From IMG/VR virus record IMGVR_UViG_2541047766_000003: a stretch of DNA of 42,126 nucleotides; one strand, given 5' to 3'. Origin of the DNA: a virus (Duplodnaviria; Heunggongvirae; Uroviricota; Caudoviricetes). A program made the position numbers and the translations under genes. The notes beneath the pieces are model-generated. The model ran no database searches and was not told the DNA's origin. It worked only from the letters and a program-made list of their open reading frames with translations. Positions 3,399-27,376 of the stretch are shown in pieces; positions within the stretch are counted from its first letter, which is position 1, and every line of letters begins with the position of its first letter.

Positions 3399-3798
3399 CG
3401 TCTTTTCTCCCCGGAATTAACTCGCGTGGATTATCGGAACGGTGATAGAGCCATATACCAATACGCACAGCGACAATTGCTGACACGAATGCGCCTGCAG
3501 AGAAAACAATCCCTTCTTCAAAAGAGTCCTGCGTGATGGTAGGGATCAGGCTGGCTATGCCGATAAGAATTGATGCTGCTGGTTTGTAAAAGAGAAGGCC
3601 GCAAAGAAAGCTGAGCATCGACAGGAGCACCCGGCGACGGATGGGGTACTCTACTGCAGAGGTAACAAAAATTACCGCTCCAGCCAAAGCACCCAAAGCA
3701 ACCTCAGGAGGAACTCCTGCTATCACCGCCGCCAGAGAACTCATGCTAAGCCACTGATTTAAAGTTTCACTGGTTAGTTGAGCTGACATGTTTTCCAC
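3385..3798 (-). CDS. Putative holin/antiholin-like membrane protein
   Basis: Several predicted TM helices; first gene of the lysis cassette. Confidence 0.5.
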   Translation of the reverse strand: MENMSAQLTSETLNQWLSMSSLAAVIAGVPPEVALGALAGAVIFVTSAVEYPIRRRVLLSMLSFLCGLLFYKPAASILIGIASLIPTITQDSFEEGIVFSAGAFVSAIVAVRIGIWLYHRSDNPRELIPGRKDDGNA

Positions 3799-6578: not shown

Positions 6579-6593
6579 TTACCTTTCGGGTAA
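6579..6593. promoter_or_regulatory. Operator-like palindrome TTACC-TTTCG-GGTAA
   Basis: Same 15-bp palindrome family as the OL/OR sites; lies in the divergent tailspike / small-gene intergenic region. Confidence 0.5.
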
Positions 6594-6630: not shown

Positions 6631-6650
6631 TACTGTATAAATATACAGTT
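6631..6650 (+). promoter_or_regulatory. LexA (SOS) box
   Basis: tACTGTataaatatACAGtt = CTGT-N8-ACAG with AT-rich spacer, 20 bp before the ATG at 6670. Confidence 0.7.
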
Positions 6651-7697: not shown

Positions 7698-7712
7698 TTA
7701 CCTTAAAGGTAA
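7698..7712. promoter_or_regulatory. Operator-like palindrome TTACC-TTAAA-GGTAA overlapping the promoter of 6949..7677
   Basis: 21 bp upstream of the minus-strand start; TTGATC -35-like element upstream on the minus strand. Confidence 0.5.
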
Positions 7713-7805: not shown

Positions 7806-8074
7806 ATTTACATCGCACTCCTCTTGTGTCATAGTAATCGGGCACTGGAAAAATCCAGTGCCGGGATTGGCGTCCCGGATTACTAAAAGGCGCATTCACC
7901 GCGCAAGCGGTTTTTTTATGCGTATAGCACGGCCACATTCGTATTATGGTGGGCTGTGTGGGGGCACCGAAAGGTGCGCCGGGTCCTTTTAGCCGGTTAC
8001 GCCAACCCTGCACAGTTCACCACCAACCGATTGGCGTCGGTAGTGGTGATTAACCAGACTAAAAGGTAACCACT

Positions 8075-26322: not shown

Positions 26323-26359
26323 TTGACATTTAACGCACGAATTATTACCTTTCAGGTAA
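26323..26359 (+). promoter_or_regulatory. Promoter-like TTGACA plus operator palindrome TTACC-TTTCA-GGTAA
   Basis: Architecture parallels pL (ttgacat...attattacc...ggtaa); faces the tRNA/Gp49 islet. Confidence 0.45.
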
Positions 26360-26681
26360 GTAAATAGTTCATTCCGGTTATTAACCTGACTGGCTTGTCG
26401 TTAAATTGAACAGGTGGAGTGAGCTTTTATTTTGAGCAGTACGGCGTATGGCACATGCGCCGATAGCGGTCTGGATACGTTTAAGGGGCACCCTCCCTTG
26501 CTCGGGCAAACGAACCAGGTAGCCGGAATGTGCAAGTCGAGCGGTTTTATTCCGCGCACGGGGATTCACCATCCCGGCGATTCGGTGTGACACCTCGGAA
26601 GAGACGAGGGTGCAACGATGAGAGCATTTATGGAGCCGCGACAAAGTGTGGCGCCTTAACAGGCTAAGTGCTCTCAGCGTT

Positions 26682-26758
26682 GTGGCATTAGCTCAGTTGG
26701 ACAGAGCAACCGCCTTCTAAGCGGTTGGTCGCAGGTTCGAATCCTGCATGCTACGCCA
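26682..26758 (+). tRNA. tRNA-Arg (anticodon TCT)
   Basis: Cloverleaf folded by hand: acceptor GTGGCAT/ATGCTAC, D-stem GCTC/GAGC, anticodon stem ACCGC/GCGGT with loop CTTCTAA, T-arm GCAGG-TTCGAAT-CCTGC, encoded CCA. Confidence 0.85.
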
Positions 26759-26801
26759 GAATCACGCCTAATGACCGTGATGCCAGAAGTTCCAGGTGCT
26801 T

Positions 26802-26845
26802 GGCGGTGATGGTTTCCCTTGAAGGACTATCACCGCCCTTTTTAC
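26802..26845 (+). terminator. Rho-independent terminator after the tRNA
   Basis: 9-bp stem ggcggtgat/atcaccgcc followed by ctttttac. Confidence 0.6.
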
Positions 26846-26921
26846 AGCAGGACGCCATTGCGATGACTTCATGCTGTAAACCAGTACAGCCACGGAAGGC
26901 AGAACTCATTGCTTCCAGTTC

Positions 26922-26946
26922 GCCCGGTTCGCCGGGCATTTTTTTA
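26922..26946 (+). terminator. Terminator/attenuator hairpin directly upstream of the Gp49-like gene
   Basis: gcccgg-ttcg-ccgggc followed by attttttt; RBS aaggtgag follows. Confidence 0.55.
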
Positions 26947-26956
26947 AGGTGAGATT

Positions 26957-27328
26957 ATGAACGACCAGCAAATCGAAAAAGAAATCGTTGAGAAAGGCAA
27001 AACGGCACCGCGCGTTACGCCAGACCATATCGAAGGCATTATTGCTCAGGAGGCATATTTCACAGCAGAAGATGGTGCCTTTGGCAAAGCCATAAAAGCG
27101 AAACATACTGGCGGAGAGGTAAACTACCAGCCGCACGAATCACTTTCTCTGCTGACGTTCTGCGTCCTGGTGCTGCGCAACGGCTTCACCGTCACCGGAG
27201 AGAGCGCCTGTGCAAGCCAGGAAAACTTTGATGCAGAAATTGGTCGGAAGATTGCCCGGCAGAATGCTGTAAACAAAATCTGGATGCTCGAAGGTTACTT
27301 GCTGAAGCAGAAGCTAAGCGAGCAATAA
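26957..27328 (+). CDS. Gp49-like phage protein (Phage_gp49_66-type), unknown function
   Basis: 123 aa; ...LLTFCVLVLRNGFTVTGESACASQENFDAEIGRKIARQNAVNKIWMLEGY recalled as this family; opposite strand to flanking late genes. Confidence 0.6.
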   Translation: MNDQQIEKEIVEKGKTAPRVTPDHIEGIIAQEAYFTAEDGAFGKAIKAKHTGGEVNYQPHESLSLLTFCVLVLRNGFTVTGESACASQENFDAEIGRKIARQNAVNKIWMLEGYLLKQKLSEQ

Positions 27329-27348
27329 CACCGTGACATGTCACAAAC

Positions 27349-27376
27349 AGCCAGCCGATGAGCTGGCTTTGTTTTA
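27349..27376 (+). terminator. Rho-independent terminator after the Gp49-like gene
   Basis: agccagc-cgatga-gctggct followed by ttgtttta. Confidence 0.7.

Follow-up and report, generated by a model that had tools for sequence, protein, structure and literature searches.

A conserved, pseudoknotted RNA module with an exchangeable hairpin tip in unrelated phages of Enterobacteriaceae

The put and nut sites of lambdoid phages occur as L and R pairs, and put RNA acts on RNA polymerase by way of the zinc-binding domain of beta'. GOLLD and ROOL are large structured phage RNAs, often found beside tRNA genes, and both are Rfam families. Structured RNAs that adjoin tRNAs or their mimics also include MALAT1-mascRNA, with its tRNA-like 3'-end processing signal, and the stable RNAs species 1 and 2 of the T4 tRNA cluster. 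The CI RNA of P4 and the c4 RNA of P1 (Rfam C4, RF01695), which are antisense RNAs of immunity, are processed from the early leaders of temperate phages. The put RNA of HK022 is about 70 nucleotides (nt) long, consists of two stems, and acts in cis as an antiterminator without the need for a phage protein (PMC9378689). Here we describe a structured RNA at 26441-26682 of the IMG/VR virus record IMGVR_UViG_2541047766_000003, a 42,126-nt stretch of caudoviricete DNA that is referred to as the window. This discrete RNA comprises a core of approximately 170 nt with five helices and two pseudoknots, followed by a helix (P6) with an exchangeable tip. An earlier note on this DNA had described the region as a non-coding leader of a tRNA-Arg gene.

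The helices of the core were read from an alignment of 44 representatives with mutual identities below 93%. Standard pairs made up 94.9% of the core pairs, compared with 23-45% when the partners were slid. Thirteen core pairs have changed on both sides, and the observed covariation was reached by none of 500 shuffles. The frequent G-U pairs in the core are compatible with the plus strand only, and the leader folds better than its shuffles (z = -3.4). The loops and joining regions of the core are invariant across copies of 70-98% identity; an invariant 19-mer, GGTAGCCGGAATGTGCAAG, corresponds to 26518-26536 of the window. The insert of P2 (26475-26514 in the window) varies in length. No open reading frame (ORF) is conserved across the element, and the best frame is open in only 15 of the 44 representatives. 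It is firmly shown that 26441-26682 is an autonomous, conserved and covarying RNA module that is horizontally mobile, has no database name, and is located in early transcription units under repressor control. The earlier note found no ORF and no second tRNA in the leader; no ORF is kept across relatives, and ARAGORN found no further tRNA. The description as a mere leader does not stand, since the segment is an autonomous covarying module.

In Rfam 15, no family matched the core or P6 at E ≤ 10 (window), at the gathering score (12 loci), or at E ≤ 5 (6 loci). Full-text searches of the literature for the 19-mer and other motifs returned unrelated papers only. No description of the RNA was found in the literature on phiV10 and tRNA-Arg, put and HK639, P1 transcriptomes, prophage small RNAs (sRNAs), or novel RNA motifs. 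In public records, hypothetical proteins are annotated over the module at loci L004 (2443-2811, mEp460_037), L007 (1601-1762, Tyrion gp54), and L160 (4426-4803). These protein calls are probably spurious.

The RNA resembles HK022 put in that it is non-coding and lies just past the early promoter of a lambdoid phage without a recognizable N gene, upstream of terminators. For the passage of early transcription through terminators in lambdoid phages that lack N, a 2025 paper on the phage LLS guesses at a "put-like" element (PMC12315714). However, the core and put share no sequence similarity, and five helices with two pseudoknots in approximately 170 nt stand against two stems in approximately 70 nt. 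The core is also single-copy instead of an L and R pair, and it occurs in P1 and epsilon15-like phages as well. As in the lambda nutL/N system, the core lies behind the left operator and promoter (OL/PL), and a boxA-like sequence follows it, in the canonical form GCUCUUUAA in three relatives; moreover, mEp460 and mEp390 are named like the phages of a collection that was obtained as Nus-dependent. In contrast to that system, a search of the 2H10 early-left operon gave no N-like protein. Set against nut and the boxB-boxA-boxC leaders of rrn operons, the large core has no counterpart, and the window sequence UGCUCUC is non-consensus and predicted to be paired in P6.

With GOLLD and ROOL, the module shares the character of a phage-borne, complex, pseudoknotted RNA beside tRNAs, with variable regions and no assigned function. 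However, it matches no Rfam model, it is much smaller, it is placed in an early-operon leader, and, among the genomes of cultured species, the core is confined to prophages of Enterobacteriaceae. As with MALAT1-mascRNA and the T4 species 1 and 2 RNAs, a tRNA or tRNA-like unit immediately adjoins the structured RNA, whose end would therefore be set by RNase P. The module is unrelated to these RNAs in sequence, and its processing is predicted only. The leader also fails the C4 model, and no target of its cassette was found in the window, which holds a true C4 RNA elsewhere (7942-8027). Because the tests against put (sequence, size and paired copies) failed and neither an N partner nor an Rfam match was found, the RNA is filed as a new class among the phage early-leader and tRNA-associated structured RNAs, outside every named family.

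The tip of P6 is a site of exchange. Its inserts are mutually unrelated, range from 37 to 172 nt, and fall into at least 23 types among 91 parsed loci. The same cassette type was found in different scaffolds, and near-identical scaffolds carry different types. Within the window, the complement of its own cassette does not occur elsewhere beyond chance. Loops that resemble the T-arm of tRNA (GGUUCGAUUCC, GGUUCAAUUCC) are present in several cassettes (L008, L012, L161 at 3688-3783, L103, L099, and L076); the L103 cassette resembles a nearly whole tRNA, and ARAGORN made no call there. The 3' strand of P6 is boxA-like: it reads UGCUCUC in the window (26669-26675), and UGCUCUUU occurs in 9 of 21 arm variants. 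The window version departs from the boxA consensus (CGCUCUUA / UGCUCUUUAACA). Three loci have the core only and carry, 35-45 nt past P5, a hairpin together with the canonical boxA mentioned above. Long hairpins with the order CA(C)AAC, purine-rich strand, variable tip, pyrimidine-rich strand and GUUGUGG recur two to four times per leader and look like a repeated RNA module. They were observed upstream of the core in L012, L043, and L007, after terminator T1 in L013 and L161 (3990-4085), and as P6 in the window (26613-26682); the motif GUCGUUAAAUC is common to some of their tips.

A sensitive search with the leader alone matched unrelated phages at 70-83% identity. The matches include the lambdoid phages mEp460, cdtI, 2H10, and Stx2c- and Stx2a-converting phages, the phages P1, P7, and D6, further phages of Salmonella, Klebsiella, and Enterobacter, and two phages recorded on Stenotrophomonas. 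The 19-mer retrieved at least 120 further viral contigs and 24 genome contigs. Overall, the core was found in more than 150 loci, once per phage. Searches with nhmmer --max detected no second copy in the window or in the 2H10 and STEC1575-Stx2k loci, and none near the right promoter (PR). Conservation of the leader, for which the earlier note had asked, is thus found at 70-98% identity in P1, lambdoid, Klebsiella, and Enterobacter phages. The 1.15-kb region of the window shares 96% identity with Escherichia phage phiV10 and the O157 typing phages 9 and 10, and prophages of many E. coli chromosomes match it at 98-99%. These are epsilon15-like podoviruses of the genus Uetakevirus.

Of 5426 complete E. 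coli genomes, 1836 (34%) carry the core, and 554 of its places are on plasmids, which is consistent with P1-like phage-plasmids. In the sampled rows of these matches, no annotation lies beneath the core except for one "hypothetical protein". Among 185,579 species representatives, the 19-mer occurs in only 24 contigs, all from Enterobacteriaceae apart from two metagenome bins. A host housekeeping gene was rejected on this count, and the near restriction to one family indicates that the core is phage cargo.

The contexts of the core differ between phage groups. Since 83 of 128 loci have no tRNA nearby, obligate tRNA linkage was rejected; only the epsilon15-like phages (tRNA-Arg directly 3') and the P1-like phages (tRNA-Ile(CAU), 14 nt upstream of the core) are linked. 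The P1 core stands alone in the ban operon, which C1 controls, with trnI on one side and ban on the other. Upstream of the core in the lambdoid phages, the first gene has the same orientation and encodes a CI-type repressor, of seven different families; it is followed by a terminator and then an operator-flanked promoter, and the carriers have 0.55-0.8 kb of non-coding sequence ahead of their early-left genes. In Stx2a_WGPS2, the core is preceded by operators of the TTGC-N7-GCAA type, which is also the type found between cI and cro. Therefore, this promoter is taken to be OL/PL, and the RNA lies in the nutL/putL position. No N gene is annotated in six lambdoid carriers, including mEp460, mEp390, WGPS2, 1720a-02, and STEC1575-Stx2k (the window was not tested), and comparison of PHROGs with the six annotated early-left genes of 2H10, which extend from the leader to xis, gave no antitermination family. 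The mEp phages were isolated as Nus-dependent phages in a paper that does not name mEp460 or mEp390 (PMC11893012); from their names, we infer that these two belong to that collection. In all contexts inspected, the downstream genes are co-oriented with the module, and no terminator lies ahead of P6 and the tRNA or tRNA-like unit. Epsilon15 has lost the core together with P6, the tRNA, and one half of T1, while T2 and the Gp49-like gene remain. The deletion joins a short repeat that is present in both the P2 insert and the T1 loop, and its junction reads UUCCCUUGAUGCUGAC.

The sequence 3' of the core is modular. GUUGUGG forms the end of P6 in most loci, and either a real tRNA-Arg or a tRNA-like unit comes next; in the window, base G1 of the tRNA-Arg forms the last base pair of P6. 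The tRNA-like unit combines an acceptor-like stem (GUGGUGA...UCACCAC) with a variable interior, a hairpin where a T-arm would lie, and a 3' end in ...CACAACCA. Its D-arm-like hairpin covaries (GCGC/GCGC, GCAC/GUGC, GGCGG/CCGCC). One copy holds an in-frame stop, and the unit is therefore regarded as non-coding. By eye, the unit could be read as similar to transfer-messenger RNA (tmRNA), a reading that was rejected after ARAGORN called no tmRNA or extra tRNA and the interior proved not to be conserved. The hairpin AUCACG...CGUGAU has the same sequence after the tRNA in epsilon15-like phages and after the tRNA-like module in lambdoid phages, and T1 follows in both. T1 is kept together with the RNA module in these two groups, and a form with GGCGG...CCGCC and a U-run is present in 62 loci. 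The hairpin past T1 in the window is an analogue of the long hairpin between T1 and the first gene in lambdoid leaders (Table 1).

Table 1. Positions in the window of the RNA module and of the other features of the plus-strand islet
Feature	Positions	Strand	Description and basis
Early promoter	-35 26323-26328; -10 26346-26351	+	-35 TTGACA, 17-bp spacer, weak -10 TACCTT; read from sequence
Operator palindrome	26345-26359		TTACCTTTCAGGTAA; TTACC-N5-GGTAA match; overlaps -10 and transcription start
5' leader segment	26360-26440	+	degenerate remnant of P6-like hairpin module M0, intact in Salmonella/Enterobacter relatives
Core of structured RNA	26441-26612	+	44-sequence alignment
P1	26442-26448 / 26456-26462	+	44-sequence alignment
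PK1 (pseudoknot)	26451-26455 / 26529-26533	+	44-sequence alignment
P2	26466-26467 and 26470-26474 / 26515-26519 and 26522-26523	+	44-sequence alignment
P3, variable	26541-26544 / 26552-26555	+	44-sequence alignment
P4	26561-26565 / 26571-26575	+	44-sequence alignment
PK2 (pseudoknot)	26567-26570 / 26584-26587	+	44-sequence alignment
P5	26593-26597 / 26605-26609	+	44-sequence alignment
P6	26613-26682; arms 26613-26628 / 26667-26682	+	16-bp arms, 93.8% paired; 7/16 pairs changed on both sides
P6 apical cassette, exchangeable	26629-26666	+	comparison of parsed loci
tRNA-Arg, anticodon UCU	26682-26758	+	ARAGORN call; Rfam RF00005, 70.9 bits (gathering 29)
Hairpin AUCACG...CGUGAU	26761-26781	+	directly 3' of the tRNA
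Terminator T1 (predicted)	26802-26843; hairpin 26802-26837	+	14-bp stem and U-run; terminator scan
Post-T1 hairpin	26841-26849 / 26872-26880	+	UUUACAGCA pairs with UGCUGUAAA; read from sequence
LexA-like element	26874-26889		CTGTAAACCAGTACAG; CTGT-N8-ACAG, spacer AAACCAGT
Terminator T2 (predicted)	26922-26945; hairpin 26922-26937	+	GCCCGG-UUCG-CCGGGC and U7; terminator scan
Gp49/Sf6-gp66-family gene	26946-27328; ATG 26957	+	Shine-Dalgarno AAGGTGAG; 123 aa; Pfam match
Terminator T3 (predicted)	27349-27376; hairpin 27349-27368	+	terminator scan; phiV10 record annotates a terminator there

In several relatives, the sequence up to and including T1 (UUGCUGUGUGUAGUCUU, hairpin and U-run) is similar to the 3' portion of RprA, an sRNA of the host. 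The stretch at 1631-1750 of L009 scores 50.2 bits against the Rfam model (threshold 70), and similar stretches precede T1 in L013, L015, L037, and L109. The T1 of the window lacks this motif. The leaders that contain it may yield an RprA-like sRNA. A motif UCCYUU(G/A) is present across lineages in both the tip of P2 and the T1 loop (26812-26827), and its two copies were joined by the deletion in epsilon15. A co-variation of the P2 insert with the T1 loop was considered and rejected, as matches within the same locus were not longer than cross-lineage controls.

We favor the reading that the core is a cis-acting early-leader RNA that would modify the elongation complex in the manner of an antitermination signal, and we assign it a probability of roughly 0.4. 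Such a function is favored because of the position of the RNA, the lack of a recognizable N in lambdoid carriers, the terminator that follows, the co-orientation of the downstream genes, and the association with boxA. Between the module and the first ORF, the window and the lambdoid leaders both have a strong terminator that is conserved. Upon derepression, RNA polymerase would transcribe the leader, the core, P6, and tRNA-Arg. The RNA would then be parted from the tRNA by RNase P, with a cut at 26681/26682, T1 would stop most transcripts, and the Gp49-like gene would be expressed by read-through of T1 and T2 only. In the least certain step, the folded core would act co-transcriptionally on the elongation complex, either in a manner similar to HK022 put or via Nus factors on the boxA-like strand that follows. 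Polymerase would thereby be carried past the conserved terminator or terminators into the early genes, and the RNA would be a substitute for N.

Several observations weigh against this proposal. There is a single core per genome and none near PR, and the core is about three times larger than put. When the immunity/PL/PR region of HK022 was compared with the core by blastn and an nhmmer profile, chance hits only were obtained. In P1, the distance from Pban to the core is 2.3 kb, and ban comes immediately after the core without an obvious terminator; in Klebsiella phage SopranoGao, the core follows the lysis genes. Epsilon15 lacks the core and the tRNA, yet it keeps T2 and the Gp49-like gene. 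The stem of T1 is long (14 pairs), and one paper associates long stems with terminators that resist processive antitermination (PMC10325885). Finally, the tRNA or tRNA-like unit directly 3' of the module looks like a device for freeing an RNA.

This last point leads to a different explanation, in which RNase P, cutting where the tRNA or tRNA-like unit begins, would free the core and P6 as a stable, trans-acting non-coding RNA. In the early lytic phase, it would bind a conserved host factor or a defence component, with the P6 cassette setting its specificity. This is the main rival, somewhat less probable than the cis-acting reading, and a number of features fit it: unrelated phages carry the core in different operons, and it is dispensable in epsilon15; its loops are invariant across copies of 70-98% identity; the boundary holds a tRNA in epsilon15-like phages, an upstream tRNA in P1, or a tRNA-like unit with a 3' ACCA; discrete cassette types are common to different scaffolds; and RprA-resembling sequence precedes T1 in several relatives, one copy reaching 50 bits, below the threshold of 70. 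However, no stand-alone gene with its own terminator directly past the core was seen in the contexts inspected, the module is co-oriented with the downstream genes there, and the window cassette has no complement elsewhere in the window. More broadly, and with some reserve, the core may represent a new class of phage regulatory RNA, being either an N-independent antiterminator, not homologous to put, that would reprogram the RNA polymerase of E. coli or Nus complexes, or a processed RNA whose specificity is set by its cassette. The compact fold, its two pseudoknots, the invariant joining regions, and the 5' leader position with a conserved terminator downstream are also what would be expected of a riboswitch-like sensor. 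Such a sensor would respond to a host metabolite or signal and choose between termination at T1 and read-through, tuning the early genes. This is improbable: the core is separated from T1 by 70-250 nt in which a complete tRNA or tRNA-like unit lies, an alternative fold that pairs the core with T1 was not found, and no obvious terminator follows the P1 core.

The view that the region is only a long leader of a tRNA precursor, close to the reading of the earlier note, or a decaying relic, in either case without a function of its own, agrees with its position directly upstream of the tRNA and with the fact that epsilon15 lives without it. However, the sequence is 70-98% identical in P1, lambdoid, Klebsiella, and Enterobacter phages, mostly tRNA-free, its six helices are kept by compensatory changes, and it persists in about a third of the complete E. 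coli genomes. The covariation and the tRNA-free copies already contradict this view, which we regard as very improbable. Even less credit is given to a small protein, such as the product of the 87-aa minus-strand ORF at 26381-26644 or of the ORFs annotated in the mEp460 and Tyrion records. ORFs of 45-87 aa do exist in the window, and some records annotate hypothetical proteins over the element; however, even the best frame is closed in most representatives, length-variable inserts break the frames, and the substitutions are compensatory in pairs, G-U pairs included.

The promoter ahead of the leader was not called by a generic promoter scan. Nevertheless, its -35 element, spacing, and palindrome are kept in six epsilon15-like lineages in the comparison of upstream sequences. 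The palindrome TTACC-N5-GGTAA has 14 matches in the window against 0.83 expected, a number reached by none of 100 shuffles, and in the epsilon15 record the site homologous to the operator in Table 1 carries the annotation "repressor, lysogeny". The proposal of the earlier note that this promoter is controlled by an operator is therefore supported. With so many copies, the palindrome has the appearance of an operator that serves a dispersed repressor regulon. Sites are found throughout the prophage (for example, 6579, 7698, 7791, 8843, 29505, 33980, 34042, 36373, 37085, and 37147), and these predicted copies define a candidate regulon that recalls the dispersed C1 operators of P1. The copies at 7698, 7791, and 8843 flank an area in which Rfam calls isrK (7842-7917, 76.7 bits) adjoining the C4 antisense RNA (77.7 bits); STnc490 is called at 1687-1810 (146.4 bits). 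Together, these calls point to a P1/P4-style antisense-RNA immunity module in the phage of the window. In the 5' leader, a hairpin homologous to M0 is annotated as an RNase III site in the epsilon15 record.

The islet is encoded on the plus strand between minus-strand flanks, with the large terminase gene on one side and a small gene and the portal gene on the other; T3 closes it, facing the converging terminase gene. The tRNA-Arg(UCU) proposed in the earlier note was called by both ARAGORN and Rfam and is the sole tRNA of the window. AGA is used 7.4 times per 1000 codons in the window ORFs (12% of Arg codons), about three times the E. coli average. A role of the tRNA in codon supply is therefore plausible. 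T1, T2, and T3 are predicted terminators, recognized in the scan as a G+C-rich hairpin with a T-run. T2, which ends 9 nt from the Shine-Dalgarno sequence of the next ORF, is kept in epsilon15 and annotated there as a rho-independent terminator. The ORF matches Pfam PF13876 (Phage_gp49_66) with 118.5 bits (cut-off 27); it belongs to phrog_322 in PHROGs, with no function, and is named "Gp49 family protein" in RefSeq. Two terminators and the Gp49-like gene were thus recovered as the earlier note had described them. Its idea that the gene may need read-through also holds: the gene lies behind two terminators, the generic scan found no promoter-like site between them, and the gene therefore appears to need read-through of both T1 and T2. 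In Enterobacter phage Tyrion (L007, 2598-2662), an int-alpA RNA scores 44 bits in Rfam, above threshold, just past the Gp49-like gene; the window lacks it.

The possible LexA site between the terminators fared less well. CTGT-N8-ACAG has three matches in the window against 0.44 expected. Of 21 sequence versions, 6 keep the element listed in Table 1, all in the phiV10 clade, and the 3' arm of the post-T1 hairpin takes in the 5' half of the element. A LexA box has an AT-rich spacer, but here the spacer reads AAACCAGT. The match is probably a chance occurrence and not a functional LexA site. A near-consensus LexA box, CTGTATAAATATACAG, is located at 6633-6648 and is far better than this element; an operator copy (6579-6593) lies close by.

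The annotation of several records, which place hypothetical proteins over the RNA, is corrected by this analysis. The module is unnamed in Rfam and RefSeq, yet it is carried by P1, Stx2-converting phages, O157 typing phages, and 34% of complete E. coli genomes. Its compact two-pseudoknot fold, invariant loops, and swappable cassette make the RNA directly testable. The RNA sits exactly where a signal that takes early transcription past terminators in N-less lambdoid phages would be expected.

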